A stretch of 64,000 bases of DNA from Candidatus Staskawiczbacteria bacterium (GTDB lineage Bacteria > Patescibacteriota > Minisyncoccia > Minisyncoccales > Staskawiczbacteraceae): assembly GCA_903835075.1 (NCBI GenBank), contig CAILLM010000008.1, forward strand, positions 25,498-89,497, written 5' to 3'. The translations under genes were made by a program, and so were the position numbers. A model generated the notes under the pieces. That model was not told the DNA's origin and searched no databases. It saw only the letters and a list, made by a program, of their open reading frames with translations. Positions 1 to 54,860 of this stretch are shown here, in pieces; position 1 is the first letter of the stretch, and every line of letters begins with the position of its first letter.

Positions 1-670
1 TAATATCCTGGGCATTTGCAGTGAAATTAGTTTTATTTGCTAAAGTTGAAAAAGTTGTATTTTGGATGAAAGTATTAAGATCGTTGATTGTCTTTATCTG
101 AAGTGATATAGGAGCAACTGTTGGCTGATTAACTGCCGGAGGACAACTGCAATTTGCTAAGGCGGCGGTTGTTGGGTCAGAAAAACTTTCAGTCATACCA
201 TTTCTATCTGTGCATATATAATTTGTGCCGTTACTGGCTATGGCATACCAATTTGAATCACTGACGCTACCTGGGTAACAAGAGTTAGTTGTGTCTCCAT
301 CATTACAAACAAAAGTAGTATAGCCCAGTCCATTCAGTCCACTTTTAATATTGGCGACGGTATTGCCAAGAAGTGACGGAGAATTATTCACACAAAATGC
401 ATAATCACTTTTCCATGACGATATGTTTTTAAAATTAACAGATGCATCATAGAGGGATTGCATTAATTCTTTCGGCGTTGCTGTTGGCACAACAGTAGAA
501 CCAGAGAGTGCAGCAGAAAAAATTTTTATTTGTACTATTAGGGACGCTATTTGTGCTTGAAGTTGGGCAATTATTGAAAGATTACCCGTGCCTTGAGCGC
601 TAACAACGCCACCAAAACATAAAAGTGTTACCGCTAAAATGCCTGTAAAAATTAAATATTTTATTTTCAT
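1..670 (-). CDS. Surface/secreted protein, tandem paralog of the 672..3392 gene; N-terminal part only, the gene runs off the window edge
   Basis: ATG at 670 lies 1 nt after the TAA stop of the upstream gene on the minus strand. Translated N-terminus MKIKYLIFTGILAVTLLCFGGVVSAQ...IAQLQAQIASL nearly repeats the signal peptide plus coiled-coil start of the 672..3392 protein. The frame stays open to position 1. Confidence 0.6.
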   Translation of the reverse strand, partial: MKIKYLIFTGILAVTLLCFGGVVSAQGTGNLSIIAQLQAQIASLIVQIKIFSAALSGSTVVPTATPKELMQSLYDASVNFKNISSWKSDYAFCVNNSPSLLGNTVANIKSGLNGLGYTTFVCNDGDTTNSCYPGSVSDSNWYAIASNGTNYICTDRNGMTESFSDPTTAALANCSCPPAVNQPTVAPISLQIKTINDLNTFIQNTTFSTLANKTNFTANAQDI

Positions 671-671
671 G

Positions 672-3392: not shown

Positions 3393-3429
3393 TAATTTTT
3401 CCGCCTCAGCGGATAATAAATAATATTAT

Positions 3430-3462
3430 TTAATAATACTCTTACCAAAAAAACAAGTCAAC
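3430..3462 (-). promoter_or_regulatory. Putative sigma70-type promoter of the tandem surface-protein genes (minus strand reads TTGACT-17nt-TATTAT)
   Basis: The reverse complement of this interval contains TTGACTtgtttttttggtaagagTATTAT, about 40 nt upstream of the ATG at 3392. Confidence 0.4.
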
Positions 3463-3506
3463 GTCTTATTTATTGAAAAATGAGCGTTTTGTGGTAATCT
3501 GTTATT

Positions 3507-4814
3507 ATGGAAAGGTTTAAATTTATTACTCAAAAAAACTTTGACGAGCTCCCAAAAACATCGGGAGTTTATTGCCTTGCCTCGCCGAAGCTAAAGGGCG
3601 AAGGCGGGTTTGAGGTAATCTATATTGGCAAAGCTATAAACATAAAAAGCAGAGTTAAAAACCATTTTCAACAGCCAAGCTACCGCGACAATTTATTTAT
3701 TGATAAAGTTAGTAAAATTGGCTACTTGGAGACTAACTCAGAAATTGAAGCCTTAATTTTGGAAGCAAATTTAATTAAAAAATATCAACCCAAGTTCAAT
3801 GTTGTTTGGAAAGACGATAAAAACTATTTTTACGTAGCCATTACACAAGACAAATGCCCAATAGTTTACATTACTCACCAACCCTTCGGCTCCGCTCAGG
3901 GCAAGCCCAAACTACTCACTACAAACTACTCACTACAAACTAAGTATATTGGGCCGTTTGTTGAGGGGACTGCTCTAAAAAAGACTTTAAAATATTTAAG
4001 GCGAGCATTTCCATATTACACCAGCAAGAAGCACCCTAAAACAAAATGCACATGGTGCCATTTGGGACTATGCCCTGGGCCCCGCCTCTTCGAGGCGAGG
4101 CTCGACTCGCCCACTGGCGAGGCGGCAAACCTAAGAAAAGAATACAAAAATAATCTTAAAAAATTAGCCCTAATCTTGCAAGGAAAGCGAAGTGCCGTGC
4201 TTAATTCTCTAAAGCGAGAAATGGCACAATTCTCAAAAGAAAGTAAATTTGAAGAAGCCGGAAAAATCCGCGACCGAATTTATAATCTGCAACAAATTAT
4301 GGCCCACAGCATTGTCATTGAAAATTCCAAAGCCACTCAAGAATCTAATGTTGGAGATATTTTTGCAAAAGTTGAATGTTATGACATTTCAAACATACAA
4401 GGGAAATTTGCAACCGGCTCTATGGTAGTTTTTGTAAATGGAGAGTCAGACAAAAGCCAATACAAAAAATTCAAAATTCGCTTAATGGACACACCAAATG
4501 ACATTGCCATGTTAAGAGAAGTTTTGGAAAGAAGATTCAATCACCCAGAATGGAAATATCCTGAGGTAATTTTAATTGATGGCGGGAAAGCTCAATTAAA
4601 CATTGCCATAAAGGTTAAGAATAAACTGCCCATTAAAATTATTTCAATTGCAAAAGGCAGGCAAGAACTGTTTATTGAAGGCCAAAAAAATCCAATACCG
4701 CTAAAATTATTACCACAAAATATTTACAACTTAATTTTGCAATTAGACAGCGAAGCTCACCGCTTTGCAATCACATATCATAAAAAATTAAGAAAGAAAA
4801 ATTTATTGCAGTAA
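3507..4814 (+). CDS. uvrC: Excinuclease ABC subunit C (UvrC) homolog, short form lacking the C-terminal (HhH)2 domain
   Basis: GIY-YIG motif (GVYCL...VIYIGKAINIKSRVKNHF), Cys-rich region (KCTWCHLGLC), UVR-like helix (AGKIRDRIYNLQQI) and the RNase H-like UvrC endonuclease domain (ECYDISNIQGKFATGSMVVFVNG...YKKFKI). Ends at 435 aa. Carries GC-rich in-frame insertions (PFGSAQGKPK; CPGPRLFEARLDSPTGEAANL). Confidence 0.75.
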   Translation: MERFKFITQKNFDELPKTSGVYCLASPKLKGEGGFEVIYIGKAINIKSRVKNHFQQPSYRDNLFIDKVSKIGYLETNSEIEALILEANLIKKYQPKFNVVWKDDKNYFYVAITQDKCPIVYITHQPFGSAQGKPKLLTTNYSLQTKYIGPFVEGTALKKTLKYLRRAFPYYTSKKHPKTKCTWCHLGLCPGPRLFEARLDSPTGEAANLRKEYKNNLKKLALILQGKRSAVLNSLKREMAQFSKESKFEEAGKIRDRIYNLQQIMAHSIVIENSKATQESNVGDIFAKVECYDISNIQGKFATGSMVVFVNGESDKSQYKKFKIRLMDTPNDIAMLREVLERRFNHPEWKYPEVILIDGGKAQLNIAIKVKNKLPIKIISIAKGRQELFIEGQKNPIPLKLLPQNIYNLILQLDSEAHRFAITYHKKLRKKNLLQ

Positions 4815-4853
4815 TTATTGCTTTTTAGTCAAAAATTTGGTAACATATATTTA

Positions 4854-5243
4854 ATGAGAAGATTACTCTCTAACATTATCTCTGCCACATTGGGATTGTG
4901 GTTGGCACTATTATATGTGCCTAAGGTTGTTATAAGGGCATACCCATCATCTAATTTCTTTGGCGTACCGTTAACAGCTCAATGGGAAATTGTTTTAGTT
5001 TTAGGAATTACTTTGGGATTGCTAAATTATTTCTTAAGACCAGTTCTAAAAGCACTTACTCTACCCTTAGAAATTCTCACTCTTGGACTTTTTACAATAG
5101 TAATAAATATGGGTTTAGTCTGGATTTTGGACTCAATTTTTGATGAATTATATGTCCCAATTCTAATGCCCCTATTGTATACAACACTTATTGTTTGGGG
5201 ATTGAATATTATAATTAGTTTCTTCTTAGTTAAAAACAAATAA
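4854..5243 (+). CDS. Small 4-TM membrane protein, DUF360 / phage-holin-4_2-like family
   Basis: Four predicted hydrophobic helices of YvlD/DUF360 type. The track start at 4818 is a TTG; the first ATG (MRRLLSNII) is at 4854. Confidence 0.45.
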   Translation: MRRLLSNIISATLGLWLALLYVPKVVIRAYPSSNFFGVPLTAQWEIVLVLGITLGLLNYFLRPVLKALTLPLEILTLGLFTIVINMGLVWILDSIFDELYVPILMPLLYTTLIVWGLNIIISFFLVKNK

Positions 5244-5251
5244 TAAAAATT

Positions 5252-5470
5252 ATGAATCAAATTCTATTTTACTCACAAGTTATCACATCTGTAGTTTTAA
5301 TTGTGCTTATTGTAATCCAACAAAGAGGCGCTGCCTTGGGTTCTGGATTTGGAGGTGGTGGTGAAATTTATGCCACAAAACGCGGAGCACAGAAAAAAAT
5401 ATATTACGCTACGGTTGCAGTAGTAACCATTTTCCTAGTTTTGGGCGTATTAAATATATTAATACCGTAG
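5252..5470 (+). CDS. secG: Preprotein translocase subunit SecG
   Basis: 72 aa with two TM helices flanking the Gly-rich SecG loop QQRGAALGSGFGGGGEIYATKRG. Confidence 0.65.
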   Translation: MNQILFYSQVITSVVLIVLIVIQQRGAALGSGFGGGGEIYATKRGAQKKIYYATVAVVTIFLVLGVLNILIP

Positions 5471-5485
5471 GTTTTAAACCAAACA

Positions 5486-7489
5486 ATGGCAAAGTCAAAG
5501 TTTCCTAAACTTTCTCAATGGAAACAACTTTTTAAAATATTGAAAAAACCCGAAAAAATCTTTTTTTTGATTTTTCTGGTGTTGTTTATTGCATCTGCAA
5601 CTTACCTTGTAGTTAATTTTTATATAAATAATACAAAAGCGGTCCCTGCATTTGGCGGAACATATACAGAAGGCGTTGTTGGTCAGCCAAGATTCATAAA
5701 TCCTATTTATGGAGAAACAAATGATGTTGATAGAACTTTAATAGACCTCACCTATTCCGGATTAATGACTTATGATAAAGATGGAAAACTTATAAATGAC
5801 CTAGTAAAAAACTATCAAATTTCCGACAATGGGAAAACCTATACCTTCCAATTAAAAGACAAACTTTACTGGCAAGATGGCTCTCCCCTTACCGTTGATG
5901 ATGTTATCTACACAATAAAAACAATTCAAAATTCCGACTATAAAAGTCCTTTAAGAGCAAATTGGTTAAACGTAGATGCCAAAAAAATTTCTGACATATC
6001 ATTTGCGTTGTCCTTGGGGTCACCTTACAACTCTTTTCTAGAAAACTGTACAATAAAAATAATCCCTCAACATATTTGGAAAAATATTTTGCCTGAAAAC
6101 TTTGCTCTTTCACCGCACAACCTACAACCAGTTGGCTCGGGGCCATATACTCTTTCTGATATACGAGAAAATAAAGACAGCTTTATAACCAACCTAGCGC
6201 TTTCCGTAAATCATAAATATTATAGTAAGCTGCCATATATATCAGAAATTAATTTCAGGTTTTTTGGTAATAAAAATGATTTAATTAGCGCAGCCAACCA
6301 AAAAACAATTGATGGGTTCCCTGTTTCAGACTTAGAAAATAATGAAGCTTTGGCGGAAAAAGATGTCCACCAAGGGTGGAATACAAATGAAAAATTCCAA
6401 GTTTATTCTTTCTCACTGCCAAGATATTTTGCAGTATTCTTCAACTTACAGAATTCTAGAATTTTGTCTGATGGCAACATCACGCAAGCACTTAATTATT
6501 CTGTTAACAAGCAAGAACTTGCCCAAAATGTATATAATAAATTTAAAATAAAAACACCTGTTGTTAATTCCCCTATTTTGCCAGATTATTTTGGCTATTC
6601 ACAACCAAAAACAACTTACGACTACAATGTAGACTCTGCAAACAAACTTTTGGATAAATCTGGATACAAAGATTCAGGAGCTGGGCAAAGGACAAAAGCA
6701 AACAACAAAAAACCAGCATTTCAGTTTACTGGCTACTTGTCTACAAAATCTAAAGGTAATGAAGTTATAGAGCTTCAAGGATGTCTTTCTAGGCTAGACA
6801 GCAGCTTTAAAACTCTTTTGCAAACAGACCCAAGTGGGAAATATGGCGCAGGGACAGAAGCGGCTGTAACGGCATTTCAAAAAAAATATTTGCCAGGAGT
6901 CCCAACCACAGGAGAAACAGGAACTGGCACAAGAAAAGCTCTAAACACAGCTTGTTTTATAGCTCAAAGTAGCTCTTTGCCCCTACAATTCACATTAACC
7001 ACAATCAACCAACCACAAATGGTTTACACTGCCAATCTTTTAAAAAATTATTGGCAAAAAGTTGGGGTGATAGTTACAATAAAAACCGTAGAGCTTTCAG
7101 AATTAAAAAATGTTATTAAAAATCGTGACTACGATGCCCTACTTTATGGTGAGGCCTTTGGAAGTATCCCTGATTTATATCCATTTTGGCATTCCACACA
7201 AATAAATGACCCAGGGCTGAATCTTTCTGAATATCAGAACACAAACGCTGACCAATTATTAAAAGATGCCCGGGAAACGCTGGACAACAATGTGAAAGCT
7301 CAGAAATATGGAATTCTACAAGACACAATACTTTCGGGCTCTCCTGCACTCTTCTTATACAACCCCGACTATCTCTACTGGGCCTCACAAAAAGTGAAAG
7401 GAATTGATACAATTAAAATAGCTGACCCAGCTAAAAGATTTGAAAATATTCAAAATTGGTATATTAACACACATAGAACATGGAAATAA
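5486..7489 (+). CDS. ABC-transporter substrate-binding protein, family 5 (oligopeptide/nickel OppA/DppA-like), N-terminal membrane anchor, with an inserted putative peptidoglycan-binding segment
   Basis: SBP_bac_5-type N-terminal region (GGTYTEGVVGQPRFINPIY...LTYSGLMTYDKDGKL...YTFQLKDKLYWQDGSPLTVDDV). Internal GKYGAGTEAAVTAFQKKYLPGVPTTGETGTGTRKALN resembles PG_binding_1. Confidence 0.7.
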   Translation: MAKSKFPKLSQWKQLFKILKKPEKIFFLIFLVLFIASATYLVVNFYINNTKAVPAFGGTYTEGVVGQPRFINPIYGETNDVDRTLIDLTYSGLMTYDKDGKLINDLVKNYQISDNGKTYTFQLKDKLYWQDGSPLTVDDVIYTIKTIQNSDYKSPLRANWLNVDAKKISDISFALSLGSPYNSFLENCTIKIIPQHIWKNILPENFALSPHNLQPVGSGPYTLSDIRENKDSFITNLALSVNHKYYSKLPYISEINFRFFGNKNDLISAANQKTIDGFPVSDLENNEALAEKDVHQGWNTNEKFQVYSFSLPRYFAVFFNLQNSRILSDGNITQALNYSVNKQELAQNVYNKFKIKTPVVNSPILPDYFGYSQPKTTYDYNVDSANKLLDKSGYKDSGAGQRTKANNKKPAFQFTGYLSTKSKGNEVIELQGCLSRLDSSFKTLLQTDPSGKYGAGTEAAVTAFQKKYLPGVPTTGETGTGTRKALNTACFIAQSSSLPLQFTLTTINQPQMVYTANLLKNYWQKVGVIVTIKTVELSELKNVIKNRDYDALLYGEAFGSIPDLYPFWHSTQINDPGLNLSEYQNTNADQLLKDARETLDNNVKAQKYGILQDTILSGSPALFLYNPDYLYWASQKVKGIDTIKIADPAKRFENIQNWYINTHRTWK

Positions 7490-8478
7490 AAAATATTGAT
7501 AAATTAAACATGAGGGGAGTTATTGTCGCCTCGCCAGAGCAACTTACAAGGGGTTTGGAGTTGGCAAAAAACATAAAAATAAAAGGTGAATTTAAAAATG
7601 TTATTATTTGTGGAATTGGAGGCTCTGCCTTGCCTGCCAATATTTTAGATGCAACCGTAACTACAAAAATTCCCTTATACATACACCGAGATTATGATTT
7701 ACCAGCGTCAGCAAACGAAGACAGCTTAATTGTGTGTATCTCTTATTCTGGTAACACAGAAGAGACTGTTTCAGCTTTAGAGAAAGCAATACACAAAAAT
7801 ATTACTGCTGTAGCAATTACAACTGGAGGTAAACTTGAAAAAATGTGCGAAGAGCACAACATAGCCTTAGCCAAAATTCCAGCAGGAATTCAGCCACGAT
7901 CAGCAACAGGATATTTATTCTCTGCATTATCAACAATTTTAAATAATTGTGGAATAATTGACGATATCTCAGAAGATATTTTAAATACTGCCGAAGAATT
8001 AGAAAAAATAAATTCTAATTTAGAAAAAGAAGGAAAAGCACTTGCCAAAAAATTAGCAGATAAAATTCCTGTTGTCTATGCCTCAAATAATTTTAAAGTA
8101 GCATCTAGAATTTGGAAAATAAAATTTAATGAAAATTCCAAAATTCCAGCATTCCACAACTACTTTCCAGAACTAAACCATAACGAAATGGTGGGCTTCA
8201 CAGATAAAAAAATGGCTAGTGGCTTTTATGTTTTAATAATTAAAGACAAAAAAGACCACGAGAGAACACTTAAAAGAATGGACTTGACTTCTTTAATATT
8301 AAAGAAAAAAGGCATAAAAAATAGCTTTATAGAAACTGTAGATGGTTCAATAATACTAAAATTCTTTGAGATTTTATTGTTAGGCGATTGGACCTCTTAT
8401 TATATCGCTATAAACAATAAAATTGATCCCACGCCAGTTGAGATGGTGGAAGAGTTTAAAGTAATGCTGAATAAATAA
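7480..8478 (+). CDS. Bifunctional phosphoglucose/phosphomannose isomerase (SIS-domain PGI/PMI family)
   Basis: SIS motifs GIGGSALPANIL and ISYSGNTEETV; length and architecture match the archaeal-type bifunctional PGI/PMI. Confidence 0.65.
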   Translation: MEIKNIDKLNMRGVIVASPEQLTRGLELAKNIKIKGEFKNVIICGIGGSALPANILDATVTTKIPLYIHRDYDLPASANEDSLIVCISYSGNTEETVSALEKAIHKNITAVAITTGGKLEKMCEEHNIALAKIPAGIQPRSATGYLFSALSTILNNCGIIDDISEDILNTAEELEKINSNLEKEGKALAKKLADKIPVVYASNNFKVASRIWKIKFNENSKIPAFHNYFPELNHNEMVGFTDKKMASGFYVLIIKDKKDHERTLKRMDLTSLILKKKGIKNSFIETVDGSIILKFFEILLLGDWTSYYIAINNKIDPTPVEMVEEFKVMLNK

Positions 8479-8488
8479 ACTCAATGTT

Positions 8489-8570
8489 GTCGCGGTGGCG
8501 GAACTGGAATACGCGTGCGTCTCAGAAGCGCATCCCGTAAGGGTTGAGGGTTCGACTCCCTCCCGCGGCA
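8489..8570 (+). tRNA. tRNA-Leu (anticodon CAG), class II with long variable arm
   Basis: 7-bp acceptor GTCGCGG/CCGCGGC with one G-U pair. Anticodon stem TGCGT/GCGCA, loop CTCAGAA (U33, CAG, A37). Variable stem-loop CCCGTAAGGG. T-arm GAGGGTTCGACTCCCTC. Discriminator A. No encoded CCA. Confidence 0.75.
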
Positions 8571-15371: not shown

Positions 15372-16478
15372 TTACTCTTTTGGCTTTAGTACTTCTTTTT
15401 TTTCTTCACTTGCTTTTAAAGCTGCTGTTCTGACCTCTTTAAATAAATCTTTATCTGCCTTCAAGGCATTTTTTGTTTGTTCTACGCCAACTCCAAGCTT
15501 TCTTTCGCCAAAAGAAAATGTATTACCTGTTTGTTTTATTACTCCATGTAGCAAAGCTACCCTCAAAACATCAGCAGATTTTGAAATACCCTCATTATAA
15601 TAAATATCAAATTCAGCTGTTTTAAAAGGCGCTGCAACTTTATTTTTTACAATTTTTGCTTTTACCCTGTTTCCAATAATTTCTTCACCAGCTTTTATTT
15701 GAGCAGTGCGGGCCAAGTTAATTCTTACTGAAGCGTAAAACTTTAAAGCCAATCCACCAGGAGTTGTTTCGGGATTTCCAAAAACCATTCCAATTTTCAT
15801 TCTGGTTTGGTTTAAGAATATAACCATTGTGTTTGTTTTAGACATTATGGCAGAAAGCTTTCTACAGGCTTGCGACATAAGCCTTGCCTGCAAACCCATG
15901 TGCTGATCTCCAATTTCACCTTCAATTTCTCTTTGTGGAGTTAAAGCAGCAACTGAGTCAACAACAATAACGTCAATTGTGCCTGTTTTTACCAAAGTTT
16001 CCACAATTTGAAGTGCTTGCTCGCCACTATCTGGTTGCGAAATTAAAAGGTTATCCACGTCCACTCCAATGCGTCCGGCATAGTCGGGGTCCATTGCATG
16101 CTCTGCGTCAACAAAAGCACATGTACCGCCCTTTTTTTGCGCTTCAGCTATCACGTGAAGTGACAAAGTGGTCTTACCAGAAGACTCAGCCCCATATATT
16201 TCTATAATTCTTCCTCGAGGCATTCCACCAACGCCCAATGCCAAATCCATGGCAATTGAGCCTGTCGGTACAACATCAACATCAACCGCATGAATTTCGC
16301 GCATTTTCATAATTGCGCCCTCTCCAAAGCGCTCCTTAATTTCATCTAACGCACTATTTAATGCCTTGTTCTCTCCCGGCGCTGTAACTTTTTTTTCTTT
16401 TTTAGTATCTTTTGCCACGGTCTTGTGAGCGAGGCGAACAAGGTTGCTTCGGTCCCGCTGAGCGGGAACGCTGAACAC
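15372..16478 (-). CDS. recA: Recombinase RecA
   Basis: Walker A GAESSGKTT, the L1/L2 loop region and the full RecA core. The track start at 16478 is a GTG whose first 20 aa are encoded by a GC-rich repeat; the canonical N-terminus VAKDTKKEKK... begins at another GTG at 16418. Confidence 0.9.
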   Translation of the reverse strand: MFSVPAQRDRSNLVRLAHKTVAKDTKKEKKVTAPGENKALNSALDEIKERFGEGAIMKMREIHAVDVDVVPTGSIAMDLALGVGGMPRGRIIEIYGAESSGKTTLSLHVIAEAQKKGGTCAFVDAEHAMDPDYAGRIGVDVDNLLISQPDSGEQALQIVETLVKTGTIDVIVVDSVAALTPQREIEGEIGDQHMGLQARLMSQACRKLSAIMSKTNTMVIFLNQTRMKIGMVFGNPETTPGGLALKFYASVRINLARTAQIKAGEEIIGNRVKAKIVKNKVAAPFKTAEFDIYYNEGISKSADVLRVALLHGVIKQTGNTFSFGERKLGVGVEQTKNALKADKDLFKEVRTAALKASEEKKEVLKPKE

Positions 16479-16507
16479 ATTATTCGTTCGCGTTTATTTT
16501 TTAAAAC

Positions 16508-17617
16508 CTATTTTGTAAATTTAAAAGTGGAAAGGAAGCCTTGAAAATCTGCTATATCAAATGCTTGTGCCTCACTTTCTTTAGCAAACAAGGGGCTTGA
16601 AAAAGCTATTGTTACCAAAATTTTATTTGGTTTTTCTATATAAATATTGTAACCCTTATAAAAACCGTAAGGCTCTTGATCCGTTGGTCTTGCCACTCTC
16701 CCAGAAACAAATGTATTAAAAACCGCAGGGAAGCCATTAATATTAGTTTTTTGATAAGATTGATTATTTTTTGCTATATCATCAAGTGTATATCCTTTTT
16801 GAGTTGCAATTTCAAGTTGAGAAGTAGAATTACATTCTGGCGTAAGGTCAAAACAGGTTTGTTTTTGAGTTATTCTTATTGTTGGCATAAAATTACCATC
16901 TTCTTGAGTTGAAATATCTCCCCATTTTAAAGGATACTTAAAAGTAAATCCATATTTTTCATCTGAGTATATTTTCCACCCAGCGGTTTGGTCAATGGTA
17001 TTAGTTTTATTTTCTCTTTTAAAAACACTGACGTTTATATTTTTTTCTAAATTTGGTTGCATTTTTTTCCACTGAATTGAAAGGTCACCGCTTGGCATTG
17101 GAGTGACGGTAAATAAAACATCTCCTTTTTTAAATTGTTTATCTGTGTTATCTGCACCATATGAATCAAAAATAATGTCCATTGGACTTGTAGAATCTTT
17201 TATCGCAACAGCTGCATTAATTCTTGTTAAAGTTTGGAAGCCATCAATATTAACATATGTATATACGTGGCCATCGGCACCATCAACAATAGAAAATTTA
17301 TACATCCAATCTTCATTTGGCGGTGCAGATTCTTCAAATTGATAAGCTCCATACCACGAAAATGGTGCTTTAGTTGCAGATGACAAGCTATTTTGGATAT
17401 TCTTATTTTCAGAAGCCTGTTTTGAAATTAAAAAATATTGCCAGGCAAAAACTCCGCCAAAAACAATACCTGTAAATAATACAATTATTAAAATACCCAC
17501 CCAAGTAGAAATTTGTTTTTTCTGACCTGCCCTGAGCTTGTCGAAGGGTTTAGGCATTATTGGTGGCGTTGGCTGAACCGGCGAATTCATATTTTCTTGA
17601 TTTATATTTGGCTCCAT
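16508..17617 (-). CDS. Hypothetical membrane-anchored extracellular protein
   Basis: N-terminal TM helix (WVGILIIVLFTGIVFGGVFAW), no recognised domain. Contains the in-frame GC-rich insertion encoding PFDKLRAGQ at 17526-17550. Confidence 0.4.
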   Translation of the reverse strand: MEPNINQENMNSPVQPTPPIMPKPFDKLRAGQKKQISTWVGILIIVLFTGIVFGGVFAWQYFLISKQASENKNIQNSLSSATKAPFSWYGAYQFEESAPPNEDWMYKFSIVDGADGHVYTYVNIDGFQTLTRINAAVAIKDSTSPMDIIFDSYGADNTDKQFKKGDVLFTVTPMPSGDLSIQWKKMQPNLEKNINVSVFKRENKTNTIDQTAGWKIYSDEKYGFTFKYPLKWGDISTQEDGNFMPTIRITQKQTCFDLTPECNSTSQLEIATQKGYTLDDIAKNNQSYQKTNINGFPAVFNTFVSGRVARPTDQEPYGFYKGYNIYIEKPNKILVTIAFSSPLFAKESEAQAFDIADFQGFLSTFKFTK

Positions 17618-17641: not shown

Positions 17642-17800
17642 CTAATTTATTTTTTGAGGATTTATTAATTCATTCGTAAATTCATAATCCGAAATTTCTA
17701 AATCAGAAACTCGCAGATGCTTGAGTTCCCTTTTAGCTTGCTCTAAAAATTCCGTTACTCTTTTTTCATTATTTTTGGTTACTTTTCTTTTTTGTTTCAT
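17642..17800 (-). CDS. Possible small basic protein (52 aa), not in the ORF track
   Basis: ATG at 17800 to TAG at 17642: MKQKRKVTKNNEKRVTEFLEQAKRELKHLRVSDLEISDYEFTNELINPQKIN. It fills the gap between two minus-strand genes. No homology recognised. Confidence 0.2.
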   Translation of the reverse strand: MKQKRKVTKNNEKRVTEFLEQAKRELKHLRVSDLEISDYEFTNELINPQKIN

Positions 17801-17821
17801 ATCACGGGGTTTTCGTTGCAC

Positions 17822-20107
17822 TTAAACCTTCCGCCAGTTGTCACTTTCTTCTTCGGGGATTGCTTCTTCAGACTCTGATTCGTCTGGGCCACCGCCAGGA
17901 ACCAACTCCACATTACCAGAAGTCCGTGGGCGCTCGGCTGACCCCTCATAAACTTCTCTTGGTTTTGCGCCATCTGCGGGCCCAACAATTCCCTGCTCTT
18001 CTAACATGTCTATAAGCCTAGCTGCTCTTGAATAACCAATCCTTAAACGCCTTTGCAAAAATGAAGCTGATGCTTTTTTAGTTTCTCTAACAATCTTTTT
18101 AACTTCTTCGAATAATGGATCTTCATTTGCACCACCAAAAAACTCTCCGGCACCACCTCCATCATCCTTGCCACCTTCAACTCTTTCAAGACTTTCTTCC
18201 AAACTATGGCTTAAGGCCTCTTGAGGATCGCCCAGCTTCTTACCTTGTTCAACAATAAAGGCGGCAACTTTTTGAACTTCTTTTTCAGAAATATATGGCC
18301 CCTGAATACGAGTAATTTTCGAAGACTTTGAAGACAAGAAAAGCATATCTCCTGCACTTAACAATTTTTCAGCACCCGAGGTATCAATAACTGTACGCGA
18401 GTCAATTTGTGAAGAAACCTGAAAAGTTATTCTTGTAGGTACATTAGCCTTAATCAAACCAGTAATAACCTCTACAGAAGGTCTTTGGGTGGCCAACACA
18501 AGGTGAATTCCAGTTGCTCTAGCCATTTGAGCCAACCTTACAATTCCAGCTTCAAGCTCTCTTCCTTTTGCAGCCATTAAGTCAGCCAATTCATCAACCA
18601 CAAAAACAATGTATGGCATTTGCAATCCCGAGGCAATTATAGATTTATTTGAATTGTATGAACCAATATTTCTTGCAGGAACTTCTGAAAAAACTTCAAA
18701 ACGTCTTTCCATTTCGTGAGCCAACCAAGTTAAAGCATTTATTGTTTTTGTGGCGTCATAAATAACCGGGCATAATAAGTGTGGAATATCATTATAGTGT
18801 TGGAATTCCACTCTTTTTGGATCAACCATTATCATTCTTAATTGCTCAGGAGTATATTTATAAAGTAAACTCAAAATTAAACTGTTCAAGAAAATAGTTT
18901 TTCCGGTTCCAGTTGCTCCGGCAACCAACAAATGAGGCCCGTCTGCAATGTCAGTATTAACTGCTGCTCCAGAAACATTTCTGCCCAAAGCAATTAATAA
19001 AGGATTTGTAGAATCTTGAAAAGCTGATTGTGAAATTAAATTTCTCAACGTGACTATAGATCTAACTTTGTTTGGGACTTCAATGCCCACCAAAGATTTT
19101 CCAGGAATTGGAGCTTCAATTCTAATTGGGTGAGCTGCCAAAGCCAAAGCCAAATTATTTGATAATGTTGTAATTTTTGACAATTTTACACCTTCAGCAG
19201 GCTTAAAAGCATATTGCGTAACCGTAGGCCCCACATTAACTTCCGCCATTTCAACAGGAATTCCAAAGTTCTCAAGGGTGCTTTTGATTATCATTGAGTT
19301 TTCCTTGATATTTCCCGAAGTTGGCGCTGCCTCATTCTTATTTAGCAAATCCAGCGGAGGCAAAACATAGCTCCCTTTATTAGCGGTAACTGGTTTTTTA
19401 ATATCTGCTTTTTCAGCCTCTTCATTGCCTTTTTTAAACAAAGTAATTCTTGAAGCTGTGGATGGTTTTATACCCTCTTGCTTTTCCAACCCTTTAATTT
19501 TAGGATTGTCATCGTCTTGTTTGTTAGCTGCAAAAGTTGGCTTGTCTTCTTTTCTTCTTTCTTCCTTGGGAATGTCTTGCCAAATGAATTGCAAAAATAC
19601 AAATAATCCAATTAATAAAATAGCTCCAAATATTATATTTGCCACTAAAATACCAAAAAGCCCAACAAAAAGTTGTGCTAAGCGGATACCAATATTATTA
19701 GTTGGACAAGTAATCCAATTACAAGTTACCAACCCAAAATCTTTGACAGCTAAAATTCCAGCAACGCCCACCAATGAAACAAAAACAGCAATAGCCATGG
19801 CCAAATTCTTTCCTTTTTTTCTGCTTCGTAAAAAAATCAAACCAGCAACAAACAAAAATAATGGAATTGTATAAAATGCATTTCCAAATAAAAAGTCACA
19901 AGATTTTGCAAAAATTTCTCCAGCATATCCTGCTTTATTAAAATTTGGAAAAGATAAGACAATGATTATTGCAAATAAAAACAATACAATTGCCTTTATC
20001 CAACGCTTTGTCCAATTACTCAAAATAGTCTCCGTTGGCTTGTCCTTATTATTTTTTTCTTTAAAATTTTTATATTTTTTTTCTTTTTCCTTGTCTTTTT
20101 TTGCCAT
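17822..20107 (-). CDS. ftsK: DNA translocase FtsK/SpoIIIE
   Basis: N-terminal polytopic membrane domain, motor domain with Walker A (GATGTGKT), C-terminal winged-helix gamma domain (SFLQRRLRIGYSRAARLIDMLEEQGIVGP). ATG at 20107; 20110 is a GTG. Confidence 0.9.
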   Translation of the reverse strand: MAKKDKEKEKKYKNFKEKNNKDKPTETILSNWTKRWIKAIVLFLFAIIIVLSFPNFNKAGYAGEIFAKSCDFLFGNAFYTIPLFLFVAGLIFLRSRKKGKNLAMAIAVFVSLVGVAGILAVKDFGLVTCNWITCPTNNIGIRLAQLFVGLFGILVANIIFGAILLIGLFVFLQFIWQDIPKEERRKEDKPTFAANKQDDDNPKIKGLEKQEGIKPSTASRITLFKKGNEEAEKADIKKPVTANKGSYVLPPLDLLNKNEAAPTSGNIKENSMIIKSTLENFGIPVEMAEVNVGPTVTQYAFKPAEGVKLSKITTLSNNLALALAAHPIRIEAPIPGKSLVGIEVPNKVRSIVTLRNLISQSAFQDSTNPLLIALGRNVSGAAVNTDIADGPHLLVAGATGTGKTIFLNSLILSLLYKYTPEQLRMIMVDPKRVEFQHYNDIPHLLCPVIYDATKTINALTWLAHEMERRFEVFSEVPARNIGSYNSNKSIIASGLQMPYIVFVVDELADLMAAKGRELEAGIVRLAQMARATGIHLVLATQRPSVEVITGLIKANVPTRITFQVSSQIDSRTVIDTSGAEKLLSAGDMLFLSSKSSKITRIQGPYISEKEVQKVAAFIVEQGKKLGDPQEALSHSLEESLERVEGGKDDGGGAGEFFGGANEDPLFEEVKKIVRETKKASASFLQRRLRIGYSRAARLIDMLEEQGIVGPADGAKPREVYEGSAERPRTSGNVELVPGGGPDESESEEAIPEEESDNWRKV

Positions 20108-20276
20108 CACTATAATTTTTAATTATTATGTTATTATATTACAAGTGAGGATAAAGTAAATAAGCCACAGTTTATTTACTTTTGACGAACGCAGTAATAT
20201 ATTCATTCAAGTTGCACCTACTGCGGGCAGGCAGGTAAAAAAAGACCGCAGATAAGACCTGCGGTAGTCGCTAAAA

Positions 20277-20489
20277 CTAGTGTTGTTGATTTATTCTGCT
20301 ACGATACCAATACGTGGCACCAGCAAGGGCGTCGGCAATTCCTAGCCATAAACCCCATTGAAAAAGCCCTTCCCCGCCATACAAACCAATTGCCATCAAA
20401 ATCATGGCAATCATTAGAGAAAAAATCCATACGCCAATGGCAAACCTGGCTAATGGGTTTTTCTTGTTTTTCCTTATGGGTTTAAACAT
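20277..20489 (-). CDS. Small 2-TM membrane protein, hypothetical
   Basis: 70 aa, two hydrophobic helices, ATG start. Confidence 0.3.
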   Translation of the reverse strand: MFKPIRKNKKNPLARFAIGVWIFSLMIAMILMAIGLYGGEGLFQWGLWLGIADALAGATYWYRSRINQQH

Positions 20490-21019
20490 TTTTTTGCTTT
20501 CTTTAGTGCAGCTTCAAGCTCAGCGGATGTAGATATTTCACAATCCACCATTTCAAGAACCCATATGTCTACAAGACTGCCACTTACCGTTCTATGCCAA
20601 TGTGCGCCAATTGCCGACGGGATCAGCTTAAGCGCTTCCACCAACTTCTCAATTGAGGCAATATCGCGGTATCCCATAGATATGGGCACACCATTCTGTA
20701 ATTCAATTATATGATATCGCCTCTTTGCGACTAACGGATGACCAACTTCCCAACGCTTCTTGTCCCGATTATAACAAGCATTTAATGTCTGCCCTTCAAA
20801 TTCCTCGGATCCCTCTTGTTTGGGCACCACCTTAACATCGCGATGAAGAATAACTCCCTCTTTTTTCTCGCCAGCCATGGCATAAACTATCGGTCCGTCT
20901 CTTCCCGTTCTACCCAGTAAAACAACTTCAATTCTAGTTTTCATAATTATATTATCAACCGCGGAGATCTTTCCCGCGTTGCTGTTTGCAATATACCATT
21001 TTTCTATAAAAATGTCCAT
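20474..21019 (-). CDS. Hypothetical protein of unknown function in a GC-elevated island
   Basis: 181 aa from the ATG at 21019 (MDIFIEKW...). GC visibly higher than the surroundings. No motif recognised with confidence. Confidence 0.35.
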   Translation of the reverse strand: MDIFIEKWYIANSNAGKISAVDNIIMKTRIEVVLLGRTGRDGPIVYAMAGEKKEGVILHRDVKVVPKQEGSEEFEGQTLNACYNRDKKRWEVGHPLVAKRRYHIIELQNGVPISMGYRDIASIEKLVEALKLIPSAIGAHWHRTVSGSLVDIWVLEMVDCEISTSAELEAALKKAKKCLNP

Positions 21020-21085
21020 ATTATCACAAACAAAATACCCCCGCACAAGGCAAGAATAATTCTAAAAATATATAAAACATTTTTA

Positions 21086-21115
21086 GTAGTTTTTTGGCTC
21101 GAGCCAAAAAACTAC
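21086..21115. repeat. 30-bp perfect palindrome GTAGTTTTTTGGCTCGAGCCAAAAAACTAC, copy 1
   Basis: Self-complementary. An identical copy lies at 21709-21738. The two copies bracket the 21112..21651 gene. Confidence 0.85.
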
Positions 21116-21651
21116 GATATTCCAAACCTAAATTTAACCTTATCCTGGTTGTCTATAAAATCTAACAACCCAAACCTAACATATTTTTCAATTTTAAATA
21201 ATTTTACAAAATCATCAATTTCCTTCTTACAATCATAAGGATATAAAAAAATACTCTCCTGCAACTCATAAAACCCACCCATTTTTAATCTATAATTAAG
21301 AGCGTTTCGGCCCTTTCTGCATTTATTGGGTATATCAAATGCCACCATACGCCATTTGCCGTCCCATTTTTCTTTTTTATTACTAAGCCTCCTAAATCTA
21401 AAGTTAATGGCTCGCAGAAAACCCCTCTCGGTTAAAGAAACCAAAATCGATCCTTCATAGCTTTTTTTGTTTTCAATTAACTTTTGCCTCTTAAGATCAT
21501 AAACTGCAGAATTTAATTGTTTTGAAGTAAAATTATGAACATCTCTTAACACTTCATTTAAAATAAAAAACCTGCCGTCTCCGCGGGCGCCAACTTTTTG
21601 CTCGGTTTGGTAATAAATGCTCCACAATATTTCATCTAAAATCTCCCTCAT
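21112..21651 (-). CDS. PaaX-like / Cas2-fold-like putative transcriptional regulator (N-terminal winged-helix region plus a WDGKWRMVAFDIP...R..R..L...L...GF..LQESIF module)
   Basis: The motif KWDGKWRMVAFDIPNKCRKGRNALNYRLKMGGFYELQESIFLYP resembles the PaaX central domain, which shares the Cas2-like fold. At 179 aa it is shorter than canonical PaaX. GC-elevated. Confidence 0.4.
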   Translation of the reverse strand: MREILDEILWSIYYQTEQKVGARGDGRFFILNEVLRDVHNFTSKQLNSAVYDLKRQKLIENKKSYEGSILVSLTERGFLRAINFRFRRLSNKKEKWDGKWRMVAFDIPNKCRKGRNALNYRLKMGGFYELQESIFLYPYDCKKEIDDFVKLFKIEKYVRFGLLDFIDNQDKVKFRFGIS

Positions 21652-21708
21652 ACCTTTATTATACCAGAATAAATTAAAGGCATGGTATAGTATAGCTTAA
21701 AAGGGCCC

Positions 21709-21738
21709 GTAGTTTTTTGGCTCGAGCCAAAAAACTAC
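21709..21738. repeat. 30-bp perfect palindrome GTAGTTTTTTGGCTCGAGCCAAAAAACTAC, copy 2
   Basis: Identical to 21086-21115. Confidence 0.85.
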
Positions 21739-21847
21739 TATAATCTGCAATCTTATATTACTTACTGTTATCGCCTAAATTCATAAAAACTATACAAAAT
21801 ATACAAAAAATACCCCACCATTTTGTGGTGAGGTATTTCTATATTTT

Positions 21848-53564: not shown

Positions 53565-54239
53565 TTAATTCTTTTTGTCAAGCCTACCCCCAGGTTTTTT
53601 TTCATCTTGTTTTCGATCTAAGATGCCCACCTCCTTGGAAGGTTCCATAATAGGAGCAGGCGGTTCAAATAGTTTTGTTTTTTGAAATCTTGCGATAAAA
53701 TCCTGCTGTTCTCTATTTGCCTTAGTTGCGGCCTCCATTTCTAATTTTTGTTTCTCCACTCCAGCTATCCAAGCATCTGAGGATTTCTTTTCAAGAACTT
53801 TTATTTCCCGTTGATTGTCAATGCCAGTAACATAATCTAAAAACCCAACAAAACCAGTAGTATGCTTCTTGCCAGAAAACAAAGATCCTAATCTAGTAAA
53901 TATATTATTCTTAAGAGGGTTGCTCAACTTCTTTATCTCCGCTTCAAGTTCTTCATAACTCCGCCCATCTGAATCTTGTGATTCTTGATGCATACTCTCG
54001 GTAACCTCACGAGGCGCAGTAGAGGGCTCAGTAATTCCTGCTTTTAACGATGCTATTTGTTGCTCTACTTCAGCATCTTGTGTTTCTTTATCAGGTGCTT
54101 TTCGCTTTCCAAATCTTACGTCCTTCACTGCACGACCTTCAGCCTGCGCAGCTAACCCCATTAAAGCCTCTGACACCTCTTTTTGCTCTGGAGTTTCTGC
54201 TGCTTCTTCAGGGGTAACTAATTTTTCTGTTTTTACCAT
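53565..54239 (-). CDS. Acidic hypothetical protein (coiled-coil-like), GC-elevated
   Basis: 224 aa, Glu/Gln/Ala-rich. Shares a duplicated promoter module with the 54502 gene. Confidence 0.35.
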   Translation of the reverse strand: MVKTEKLVTPEEAAETPEQKEVSEALMGLAAQAEGRAVKDVRFGKRKAPDKETQDAEVEQQIASLKAGITEPSTAPREVTESMHQESQDSDGRSYEELEAEIKKLSNPLKNNIFTRLGSLFSGKKHTTGFVGFLDYVTGIDNQREIKVLEKKSSDAWIAGVEKQKLEMEAATKANREQQDFIARFQKTKLFEPPAPIMEPSKEVGILDRKQDEKKPGGRLDKKN

Positions 54240-54240
54240 A

Positions 54241-54300
54241 TTTTTAAAATTTAATTATTTTTATTTAATTCTATACCCACCAAAATAAAAGTCAATAATT
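54241..54300 (-). promoter_or_regulatory. Promoter module copy A (minus strand TTGACT-N16-TAGAAT, then ~30-nt AT-rich leader) upstream of 53565..54239
   Basis: The ~60-bp segment atttttaaaatttaattatttttatttaa..t.tat.cc..ccaaaataaaagtcaataatttt is nearly identical to 54795-54860. Confidence 0.5.
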
Positions 54301-54308
54301 TTATTATT

Positions 54309-54501: not shown

Positions 54502-54792
54502 TTAATTATTTTTTTCTACTGGGTTCCTTCCATTCAATTCGTCTATATACTTTTTTTGCTCGGCCGTTAATTCTGCAATACGATTTTCCGCTTCACGCAC
54601 GCTCGCCTCTGCTAGTGCTATGTCTTCTGCCGTTGAAGAATTCTTTGCACTAACAACCCTTAAATAGCTTTTTAAATCTTCTACATCAATCCCCTGTATT
54701 TCATAAAAAAACTCGTTGGCTTTTTCAGCTAATTCTCTTTCGCTTAGAGTAGTTAAGTCTTCTATGATAGGCTCTCCTGATTCTTGTAACAT
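54502..54792 (-). CDS. Small acidic hypothetical protein
   Basis: 96 aa. Same promoter module as 53565..54239. Confidence 0.35.
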   Translation of the reverse strand: MLQESGEPIIEDLTTLSERELAEKANEFFYEIQGIDVEDLKSYLRVVSAKNSSTAEDIALAEASVREAENRIAELTAEQKKYIDELNGRNPVEKNN

Positions 54793-54794
54793 AT

Positions 54795-54860
54795 TTTTAA
54801 AATTTAATTATTTTTATTTAAGTTTATGCCTGCCAAAATAAAAGTCAATAATTTTTGTTT
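54795..54860 (-). promoter_or_regulatory. Promoter module copy B (minus strand TTGACT-N16-TAAACT) upstream of 54502..54792
   Basis: Near-identical duplicate of 54241-54300. Confidence 0.5.

Follow-up and report, generated by a model that had tools for sequence, protein, structure and literature searches.

A candidate cognate system of a Cas2-like winged-helix protein and its flanking palindromes in Candidatus Staskawiczbacteria

Between rpoC and ftsK in a Candidatus Staskawiczbacteria genome, a gene for a 179-aa protein lies between two identical palindromes, and this raises the question of whether the arrangement is a small acquired island, as a preliminary description had supposed, or the local form of something more general. 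We analyzed the 64-kb stretch of DNA that contains this locus (the window) together with homologous loci in related genomes. The reading we favor, with a probability of roughly 0.55, is that the protein and the palindromes constitute a cognate DNA-binding protein/palindrome system, which would comprise an autoregulatory operator, a copy at the stop codon, and REP-like dispersed copies. The support for it is the co-location of genes and palindromes.

A scan of the window indicated that GTAGTTTTTTGGCTCGAGCCAAAAAACTAC, a 30-bp perfect palindrome, is present in two exact copies, with the minus-strand ORF of the 179-aa protein between them and the TAG stop codon of that ORF within one of them (Table 1). 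There was no further match to GTAGTTTTTTGGCTCGAGCCAAAAAACTAC in the 64 kb at up to 3 mismatches, none in 100 shuffles, and no array-like repetition of the palindrome within the window. RNA folding predicted a 13-bp hairpin for the downstream copy (whole folded region: −30 kcal/mol; z = −4.8), and neither this part of the window nor the module at a homologous locus (L011) matched Rfam. An extended −10 element, TGGTATAAT, is readable immediately upstream of the gene, the mRNA of which is probably leaderless, judging from this spacing.

Table 1. Positions of the features of the locus in the window
Feature	Position	Strand	Details
179-aa wHTH + Cas2-like (PaaX_M) protein	21112..21651	-	Pfam PaaX_M; AF2 model; Foldseek
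Upstream palindrome copy, proposed operator	21709..21738	.	GTAG-T6-GGCTC, dyad, GAGCC-A6-CTAC; exact match
Downstream palindrome copy with TAG stop codon (21114..21112)	21086..21115	.	Exact match
Extended −10 element TGGTATAAT	21658..21666	-	Ends 6 nt before ATG; read from sequence
Orphan protein, mostly beta, variable cargo	20474..21046	-	Maximal ORF 190 aa
70-aa two-TM protein	20277..20489	-	Overlaps 3' end of orphan
rpoC intrinsic terminator, upstream boundary of unit	21806..21840	-	15-bp stem + T-run
Weak terminator-like hairpin + T-run	21036..21058	-	Between downstream palindrome and next gene; consensus scan, RNA fold
Intrinsic terminator closing orphan/two-TM unit, before ftsK promoter	20245..20265	-	9-bp stem, 5 GC pairs, T-run

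The 179-aa protein matched Pfam PaaX_M with 68.8 bits (cut-off 24; 4.5e-19) and gave a weak Pfam wHTH match, and PaaX_C was absent by Pfam, the protein ending at residue 179. The AF2 model (pLDDT 80) consisted of helices and a wing followed by a beta-alpha-beta-beta-alpha-beta unit, and its best Foldseek matches were E. coli PaaX (8a39) and Rv0674 (3kfw), followed by many Cas2 structures. The PaaX/Cas2-fold protein with an N-terminal HTH that had been recognized from the sequence was hence borne out by both profile and structure searches; its bracketing by the two palindromes had been confirmed by the scan of the window. Against the dedicated models the protein scored 30.7 bits for TIGR02277 (PaaX equivalog; cut-off 264.55) and 19.3 bits for TIGR01573 (Cas2; cut-off 24.5), the Cas2 HMMs aligning to residues 101–136. 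Within this part, D106 in VAFDIP was conserved in at least 90% of the aligned homologues, and Q131 and S133 in LQESIF, which are likewise Cas2 signature positions, were nearly invariant, as was D106. No invariant or nearly invariant His was present among 42 aligned homologues, the protein showed no Pfam Y1_Tnp match and no HUH motif, and a PDB sequence search with the Cas2-like half returned no matches. We found 452 homologues, of which all named ones belong to Ca. Staskawiczbacteria, with none on viral contigs or plasmids. Pairwise identity in the homologue set was 75% in the Cas2-like half versus 41% in the N-terminal head. The family is under strong purifying selection. With respect to the genomic surroundings, neither cas1 nor a CRISPR array was present in the window, no cas genes were among the called neighbours, and there was no paa operon near the gene, its neighbours in the window being rpoC, the orphan gene, and ftsK. 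At other loci, the neighbours were genes for T4SS-like proteins, a tRNA synthetase, dnaE, or RNase J.

To determine how general the arrangement is, we surveyed about 80 homologous loci of Ca. Staskawiczbacteria with 47–100% identity. A palindrome was found upstream at 57 of 75 loci, downstream at 60 of 79, and on both sides at 45 of 70, at least one being undetected at about a third of evaluable loci, and these pairing statistics are partly circular because the palindrome set was picked with a palindrome finder. The pair occurred whatever the genomic context, so that the earlier suggestion that identical hairpins mark a single-gene unit applies to the relatives as well. The two copies of a locus were 92% identical, versus 55% between loci, indicating lineage-specific pairs. 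The build was common to the family, with a variable outer arm, T5–6, a 5-nt GC-rich half core, the dyad, and the mirror image, the outer arms lying about 30 bp apart centre to centre. No outer half-site motif was conserved across the family (information content was low), and ATAGT-type arms recurred at a constant distance in several clades. The variable head of the protein (41%) is paralleled by the variable outer arms, and the Cas2-like core (75%) by the constant inner geometry. A fixed TIR-like orientation of the two copies was rejected, as the informative loci were split about evenly between direct and flipped asymmetric centres.

The two copies of a pair were positioned by different landmarks. 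Of 45 loci, 34 had the sequence TGnTATAAT, and 11 of 43 had TATAAT-N6-ATG. The centre of the upstream palindrome lay most often 36 nt before TGnTATAAT (13 of 43 loci) and 30–42 nt before the extended −10 in about 24–29 loci (29 of 48 in one count), even though the spacing from the −10 to the ATG ranged over 6–118 nt. The upstream copy is placed relative to the extended −10 and not to the ATG, which is operator-like. The window is an outlier in this respect, its upstream palindrome being centred 60 nt before the −10 instead of 36, so that the −35 would not be covered there. The downstream copy is tied to the stop codon, relative to whose end it mostly starts between −6 and +5 nt (extremes about −33 and +35). 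It is no promoter element, since it was promoter-coupled in 1 of 51 cases, with no coupling in the reverse direction either. It was also rejected as the operator of the next gene, on this count and from locus L006, at which a clear terminator followed by a separate promoter sets that gene apart from the palindrome.

The palindromes are a low-copy dispersed, REP-like repeat family in these genomes. At least three PaaX-like paralogues were present in one genome, each with its own palindrome type; one of them (P0045) was predicted to carry CACGTGGCGTG-type palindromes, which was then confirmed, and the third paralogue had a third type. Dispersed copies were found after unrelated genes and also in frame within uvrC, tsaD, and PsbP-like genes, where they add about 10–14 residues in linkers or loops, some orthologues being without the insert; the uvrC and tsaD genes of the window are themselves empty sites. 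One copy adjoins dnaE. Presence/absence polymorphism of the copies was seen, and solo copies lay mostly 20–110 nt past ORF 3' ends and showed no promoter coupling. In one genome, identical 36–40-bp palindromes occurred at seven or more sites, and contigs break there. About 2–8 exact-core copies per type per genome were recovered from the incomplete genome sequences scanned. At a homologous uvrC site the palindrome stayed perfect while evolving by compensatory changes. As the GC core varies by compensatory change and the Cas2-like domain is near-invariant, selection for self-complementarity, as in a hairpin or cruciform, fits better than a base-specific reading of the duplex. Furthermore, a perfect 40-bp palindrome that lies within coding sequence and is unchanged at seven or more sites of one genome implies some means of spreading at the DNA level, for which a plain regulon gives no account. 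Core matches in Bacteroidota, Chloroflexota, Burkholderiales, Rhodobacteraceae, and Saprospiraceae had no extended arms and were put down to chance, and the only palindrome core match on viral contigs was also judged to be chance.

The part of the locus beyond the downstream copy is of a different character. The orphan ORF matched no Pfam, NCBIfam, PADLOC, or PHROG family, in agreement with the initial impression, and its AF2 model (pLDDT 74) had no significant fold match in the PDB. It had a single homologue cluster among 1.84 billion representatives, with 42% identity from Met35. Because the homologue aligns only from this residue, the start is probably the ATG at 20944, giving a protein of 156 aa rather than 181 or 190. 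The small two-TM protein said to adjoin it was found as an ORF overlapping its end and forms a two-gene module with it; the only homologue of the orphan is also followed by an overlapping small two-TM ORF. In relatives at 79–82% identity, the order rpoC, PaaX-like gene, ftsK is kept. The position of the orphan and two-TM genes is taken in relatives by a His_Phos-like gene or a 550-aa unknown, or ftsK follows directly. They are a rare, variable downstream cargo, unlinked to the PaaX-like gene elsewhere.

These data bear on the possibility, raised in the preliminary description, that the locus is a horizontally acquired cassette, such as a toxin-antitoxin or defence pair, bounded by recombination sites or paired terminators. 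The GC content is indeed raised, at 0.42–0.45, over about 20250–21000, which covers the orphan and two-TM ORFs; these genes are nearly unique in public data and variable between close relatives, and this part may have been recently acquired. The rise had been described as extending over 20474–21651, but the PaaX-like gene, with a GC of 0.27–0.36, is at or below the local background, and comparable peaks occur elsewhere in the window, for example at 16050–16500 and 17700–18150 (0.46–0.47). The palindromes flank the regulator and not the orphan, and the regulator and its palindromes are a family-wide architecture, syntenic with rpoC and ftsK. Synteny of both genes across relatives had been considered as well, and it held for the PaaX-like gene and failed for the orphan. 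A toxin-antitoxin or defence pair is not supported, given the change of downstream partner between relatives and the lack of a defence or toxin-antitoxin family match, PADLOC and PHROGs searches for a defence, toxin-antitoxin, or phage origin having given nothing useful beyond weak Cas2 similarity from PADLOC. Paired terminators do not fit either, since the palindromes have the geometry T-run, stem, A-run, opposite to the A-run, stem, T-run of the real terminators in the window. The same comparison rules out the palindrome as a generic intrinsic terminator, and thus, of the expectation that it might recur in that role at many unrelated sites, only the occurrence at such sites in related genomes was confirmed. 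No cassette array was seen. Because the architecture recurs in relatives, and lineage-specific palindromes are dispersed even within genes, a conserved system is indicated rather than an acquired island, and we regard the cassette as very improbable.

In the cognate system that we propose, the protein would combine the variable winged-helix head with the highly conserved Cas2-like domain, the latter presumably being the dimerisation core, and each family member would recognise its own lineage-specific perfect palindrome, of which two cognate copies flank the gene. A dimer bound to the upstream copy, with the promoter-proximal half-site over the −35, would repress transcription of its own gene, as PaaX does at Px. 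The downstream copy could serve as a second binding site, acting with the upstream one via looping or as a roadblock or insulator, and may also form a 3' hairpin in the mRNA. The orphan and two-TM genes would be variable cargo that has no relation to the system and is served by a promoter and a terminator of its own.

It may alternatively be that the palindromes are mobile REP-like elements and that the protein is a dedicated mobilising or processing enzyme, whose conserved acidic site of the Cas2 type would cleave or nick DNA folded into hairpins or cruciforms, in the role of a RAYT, autoregulation from the upstream copy being a side function, like that of transposases binding their own terminal repeats. 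Each point of the architecture has its counterpart in REPtrons (PMC3733652): repeats flank the gene, one of them providing its TAG stop, and a genome with several repeat families has repeat-specific protein variants. Solo copies at 20–110 nt past ORF 3' ends, copies within the excision-repair gene uvrC and beside dnaE, presence/absence polymorphism with empty sites, the seven or more sites of one genome that carry identical 36–40-bp copies and at which contigs break, and the flipping of asymmetric centres between copies all fit this explanation, as do the compensatory evolution that keeps self-complementarity and the nearly invariant D106, Q131, and S133. However, the family has no HUH motif and no conserved histidine, and we know of no Cas2-fold protein that transposes DNA. 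At most about 8 copies per type per genome were seen, compared with the more than 100 of classical REPs. The protein has no viral or plasmid relatives, it evolves under strong purifying selection, and its gene keeps its synteny in close relatives. An ordinary regulatory role for the upstream copy already follows from its fixed spacing to the promoter. Moreover, no dedicated enzyme would be needed if the palindromes were kept symmetric and homogeneous by gene conversion or by repair templated on hairpins. We therefore consider this explanation rather unlikely, and we would put forward only as a speculation, slightly less likely still, the broader proposition that CPR palindromes are spread and kept symmetric and homogeneous by a cognate wHTH/Cas2-fold nuclease whose gene sits between two copies of its own palindrome, with several orthogonal pairs per genome. 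A third explanation places the main role of the palindromes in RNA, where they would be stabilising 3' hairpins or sites of processing for the mRNA of the regulator and for other transcripts, and links them to the protein indirectly. It draws on the 13-bp hairpin of the downstream copy, which would be transcribed because it overlaps the stop codon, on the position of most solo copies just past ORFs, and on the terminator geometry of some downstream copies (L046, L057, and L100), which have outer A-run/T-run extensions. The upstream copy, however, is as conserved as the downstream one and 92% identical to it, and it lies 5' of the −10, so that it is absent from the mRNA of the regulator. A T-rich tail was found at just 11 of 53 downstream copies, the same proportion as at upstream copies, paralogue-specific types require a specific reader, and Rfam gave no match; an RNA-level role as the main one is accordingly improbable.

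The genomes of CPR/Patescibacteria are tiny, and recognisable regulators and known mobile elements are few in them. In the literature searched we found no description of such a protein/palindrome system, which is apparently a previously undescribed conserved one. The family is widespread, with hundreds of homologues and several paralogues per genome, and has a clear, testable cis/trans logic, each protein having its own perfect palindrome at its promoter and stop codon and at a few further sites, some of them within uvrC and tsaD. If the protein is simply a regulator, the pairs would be ready-made orthogonal repressor/operator pairs, and uncultured bacteria would gain a first defined regulon. 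Should the palindromes be acted upon by the Cas2-like domain, they would represent a new solution to the REP/RAYT problem, with a bearing on the roles of the Cas2 fold outside CRISPR; a palindrome-mobilising nuclease, in particular, would be a new hairpin-processing or mobilising class unrelated to HUH transposases and would give the Cas2 fold a non-CRISPR role in sequence-specific DNA transactions. In practical terms, the palindromes break MAG assemblies and add 10–14 residues to conserved proteins.

Among known systems, PaaX, the phenylacetyl-CoA-responsive repressor of E. coli and Pseudomonas (PDB 8a39 and 3l09; Pfam PaaX, PaaX_M, and PaaX_C), is the best structural match, with a winged helix followed by a Cas2-like PaaX_M in both. 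E. coli PaaX represses its own promoter and binds inverted half-sites, TGATTC-N27-GAATCA, with a spacing of about 33 bp (PMC9493321). The outer arms of our palindromes are similarly spaced and the upstream copy is promoter-coupled, a geometry compatible with such binding. The 179-aa protein differs in lacking the ligand-binding PaaX_C (179 versus about 305 aa) and a paa operon nearby, and its site is a perfect palindrome without interruption, built of T/A tracts around a GC core and having a second copy at the stop codon, several paralogue/site pairs per genome, and dispersed and intragenic copies. With the ferredoxin-fold nucleases Cas2 and VapD it shares the fold and the nearly invariant (F/Y)D(I/V) and Q-x-S-(V/I)-F motifs, including the conserved Asp at the end of beta1 (D106) found in Cas2, but here the domain is fused to a wHTH, scores below the Cas2 cut-off (19.3 against 24.5), and occurs without cas1 or a CRISPR array in the window. 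The in-frame inserts of about 10–14 residues, missing from some orthologues, resemble Rickettsia palindromic elements (RPEs) and intragenic REPs, from which they differ in staying perfect palindromes, by compensatory changes at the homologous uvrC site, and in being tied to a cognate protein gene. REPs are typically present in more than 100 copies per genome, mostly extragenic and near 3' ends. REPtrons are RAYT genes (HUH Y1 transposase) flanked by REP/REPIN palindromes, and the likeness extends from the single gene between cognate palindromes, with the repeat terminus providing a TAG stop, to repeat-specific protein variants in a single genome, copies scattered close to ORF 3' ends and in repair/replication genes, and, as in GTAG-tagged REPs, the common GTAG-like start of the arms (PMC3733652). 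The system described here departs from them in that the GTAG base-pairs with CTAC instead of forming an unpaired head, there are about 2–8 copies per type and not hundreds, the protein is wHTH plus Cas2-like, without a conserved His, and not a transposase of the HUH Y1 kind, and the spacing of the upstream copy to a promoter is fixed.

The 179-aa protein matched the "Cas2-like" central domain PaaX_M of Pfam with 68.8 bits, and its winged-helix match was weak. Because its scores for the NCBIfam models of PaaX (30.7 bits, cut-off 264.55) and Cas2 (19.3 bits, cut-off 24.5) both fell below the cut-off, its sequence places it outside both the PaaX orthologues and Cas2. The AF2 model, for which 42 homologues were used (pLDDT 80, above 90 in the C-terminal half), had a helical head with a wing, followed by a beta-alpha-beta-beta-alpha-beta unit, and Foldseek ranked E. 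coli PaaX (8a39) and Rv0674 (3kfw) at the top, followed by many Cas2 structures; the C-terminal effector domain of PaaX is absent. In the family alignment, mean pairwise identity was 75% in the Cas2-like half compared with 41% in the head, and D106 (VAFDIP) and Q131/S133 (LQESIF), at positions that we take to be the Cas2 signature motifs, were invariant or nearly so. No histidine was conserved in that alignment, and therefore an HUH/RAYT-type active site was excluded. All homologues with a source name were from Candidatus Staskawiczbacteria. A search for viral relatives of the family found none, and a literature search found no paper linking PaaX with Cas2.

The gene lies on a contig of low GC content from a CPR bacterium, in a unit on the minus strand whose features are listed in the table. 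The 30-bp palindrome occurred exactly twice in the 64 kb in an exact-match scan, and allowing up to three mismatches gave no further match in the window, or in shuffles; further copies, for which the preliminary description proposed a search, were found in related Staskawiczbacteria loci. Copies A and B are the longest palindromes of the window and the only ones with the order T-run, stem, A-run, and all of its real terminators (15204, 37580, 51986, 57216) have the order A-run, stem, T-run. No Rfam family was found for the palindrome regions, nor, in a literature search, any description of such palindromes in Patescibacteria. The GC rise described earlier across the whole island was reproduced over the orphan and two-TM ORFs (0.42-0.45) but not over the regulator gene (0.27-0.36), and equal peaks occur elsewhere. 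The window also contains a 72-nt direct repeat (54231-54302 and 54784-54855, 90% identical), whose copies are the upstream regions of the tandem minus-strand genes 53565..54239 and 54502..54792 and which looks like a duplicated promoter or 5' region.

Features of the regulator-palindrome unit and its downstream genes
Feature	Position	Strand	Remark
Unit boundaries	rpoC terminator 21806-21840 to ftsK promoter	minus	
Palindrome copy B	21709-21738		first in minus-strand order
Extended -10 element TGGTATAAT	21666-21658	minus	ends 6 nt before ATG
179-aa gene	21651..21112	minus	
Palindrome copy A	21086-21115		holds TAG stop of 179-aa gene
Weak terminator-like hairpin	21058-21036	minus	
Orphan ORF	21046 or, more probably, 20944, to 20474	minus	
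70-aa two-TM ORF	20489..20277	minus	overlaps orphan ORF
Good terminator	20265-20245	minus	

A pair of palindromes characterizes the family and is not peculiar to this locus. The relative loci L006 (82% identity homologue) and L007 (71%) shared the arrangement and the core TTTTTTGGCTCGAGCCAAAAAA of the window, with one palindrome upstream and the other holding the TAG stop, and the T4SS-like neighbourhood of L007 is unrelated to that of the window. Among 80 further metagenome loci (47-77% identity) scanned for palindromes, 57 of the 75 that could be evaluated had the upstream palindrome, 60 of 79 had the downstream one and 45 of 70 had both. The build was constant (variable outer arm, T5-6, half core, dyad and mirror image, with a half core of 5 nt in 80%), and the sequence varied by lineage, with cores including GGCTCGAGCC, GCCTCGAGGC, GCCACGTGGC, GTCTCCAGAC, CACTCGAGTG, GCGGCCGC, GCCGAACGGC and CACGTGGCGTG. 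Over 30 nt, copies of the same locus were 92% identical, compared with 55% between loci. Arm complementarity was at least 92% to position 14, with all four pair types used, in a set picked by a palindrome finder, and therefore the independent evidence is the location of the palindromes and the frequency of their recurrence. Asymmetric centres were flipped between copies in about half of the loci that had them (L046, L056, L060, L077, L079, L103, L116) and direct in the other half (L038, L048, L059, L066, L082, L092), a flip/flop pattern. The surroundings of the L007 homologue (1-8540) comprise TrwB/VirD4-like ATPases, a HepT/MNT toxin-antitoxin pair and two cysteine-rich paralogues of 550-571 aa (MxSETxQCQNC...), and may belong to a conjugative or an integrated element.

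The two copies probably have different jobs, and the upstream one is coupled to a promoter. In 29 of 48 loci, a strong -10 (mostly TGnTATAAT) directed toward the gene lay 30-42 nt from the upstream palindrome centre, and the distance was exactly 36 nt in 13 of 43, which sets the centre near -48 and the promoter-proximal outer arm over the -35 position; the window is atypical, with 60 nt between centre and -10. The distance from -10 to ATG varied from 6 to 118 nt in related loci. TATAAT-N6-ATG was found in 11 of 43 of them and in the window (21649-21666), and because this leaves no Shine-Dalgarno spacing, it suggests that such regulators are translated from leaderless mRNAs. The downstream copy had no promoter coupling in either direction (1/51 and 0/53 loci) and was fixed at the stop codon, its first base lying in most cases between -6 and +5 nt relative to the codon's end. 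Since in L006 this copy is followed by a true terminator and then by a separate promoter before the next gene begins, a role as that gene's operator was ruled out.

Evidence for cognate pairs was obtained from MAG_39_33, the genome of one relative, in which the GGCTCGAGCC type flanks one paralogue (L023) and a solo CACGTGGCGTG-type palindrome occurs in L016. Since this type is that of the L048/P0071 subfamily, to which P0045, the second MAG_39_33 paralogue, also belongs, we predicted CACGTGGCGTG-type palindromes around P0045. One was present upstream and another, with its centre flipped, at the stop codon; a third lies beside dnaE. Of all the evidence that a protein of this family may read its own palindrome, this result is the strongest. 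A third, more divergent PaaX_M paralogue on the same contig had yet another palindrome, abutting TGGTATAAT, and the family is probably much wider than the subfamily of the window. At this paralogue (L116, 9994-10540), the palindrome is A-run-first (TCTCGGTAAAAACTACGCCATGGCGTAGTTTTTACCGAGA), 12 nt before TGGTATAAT, with TATAAT-N6-ATG.

Palindromes also occurred away from regulators. A scan of species-representative genomes with the 20-nt core gave 14 Staskawiczbacteria loci, and MAG_39_33 had an identical or nearly identical 36-40-bp palindrome at at least seven sites. These sites surround the regulator and a NUDIX gene (there inside a repeated module of ~130 bp), follow a His_Phos gene and rpoC, or lie at contig ends. 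Solo copies lay mostly 20-110 nt past ORF ends, with no promoter coupling. In L011, two modules of ~130 bp (5700-5860 and 6480-6640), each with flank, palindrome and a second hairpin differing by compensatory changes, bracket the NUDIX gene and had no Rfam match. The contigs L022, L023 and L029 of MAG_39_33 end at or beside a palindrome; metagenome assembly seems to be interrupted by the repeat, for instance between rpoC and the regulator. Palindromes were read through in frame in UvrC (..EIVTFLARAKKVTIL..), two PsbP-like paralogues (..NSKFFGSSQKTNQ..) and TsaD (..NSEFFGSSQKTHQ..). Among 120 UvrC orthologues, this same linker position was occupied in many lineages by translated palindromes, which differed in type, and was empty in others. 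The corresponding DNA of L012, L111, L114 and L115 held perfect palindromes with differing cores, and the left flank GAAGAAATAG, common to three of them, therefore points to a single ancestral site with compensatory evolution. The window has empty sites in uvrC (3507-4814; short linker, no palindrome) and tsaD (60162-61364), and the 10 residues FGSSQKTHQL, encoded by the palindrome in L030, are precisely those missing from the TsaD of the window. L030 is labelled Saccharibacteria, yet its TsaD is 61% identical to that of the window and its palindrome is of the Staskawiczbacteria type; its binning or taxonomy may be wrong. The 369-aa DUF5991 protein of the window (16508-17617), without a palindrome insert, ends in ...STFKFTK, as do PsbP_2-like proteins with intragenic palindromes (L015, L019).

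In a search of 1.84 billion representatives, the orphan ORF had a single homologue cluster (42% identity, from Met35), likewise followed by an overlapping two-TM ORF. Its predicted structure was mostly beta, and no known fold matching the model was found. Relatives had other genes or no gene at this position; the orphan is variable cargo, and this portion of the proposed island may well be recently acquired.

Taken together, we consider it probable (about 0.85) that the regulator and its palindromes form a cognate system in which the upstream copy acts together with the promoter. The acquired toxin-antitoxin or defence cassette of the preliminary description is contradicted by the regulator-palindrome unit being conserved and syntenic in relatives and is highly improbable, and a role of the palindromes as RNA only, which leaves the untranscribed upstream copy unexplained, is improbable. 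The combination is one of a PaaX-family regulator and REP-like palindromes, both of known kinds, and a more distinct palindrome system is doubtful.

As to mechanism, we slightly favor, by analogy, a PaaX-style dimer whose variable wHTH heads would contact the two outer arms, spaced about 30 bp, and which would repress its own promoter, with the stop-codon copy possibly serving both as an auxiliary site, by looping or as a roadblock, and as a 3' hairpin. The binding site of E. coli PaaX, which represses Px, is TGATTC-N27-GAATCA (PMC9493321). Repression by such a dimer leaves unexplained why the self-complementarity of the GC core stays perfect while its sequence changes, and why identical 40-bp palindromes lie within coding regions. 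Because of their close likeness to the present system, REPtrons provide the rival, an analogue in which the Cas2-like domain would process the palindromes; this is rather unlikely, and it is compatible with the repressor reading. The REP/RAYT REPtrons (PMC3733652) match the system in core self-complementarity, intragenic palindromes, overlap with the TAG stop, repeat-specific paralogues and preference for repair genes.
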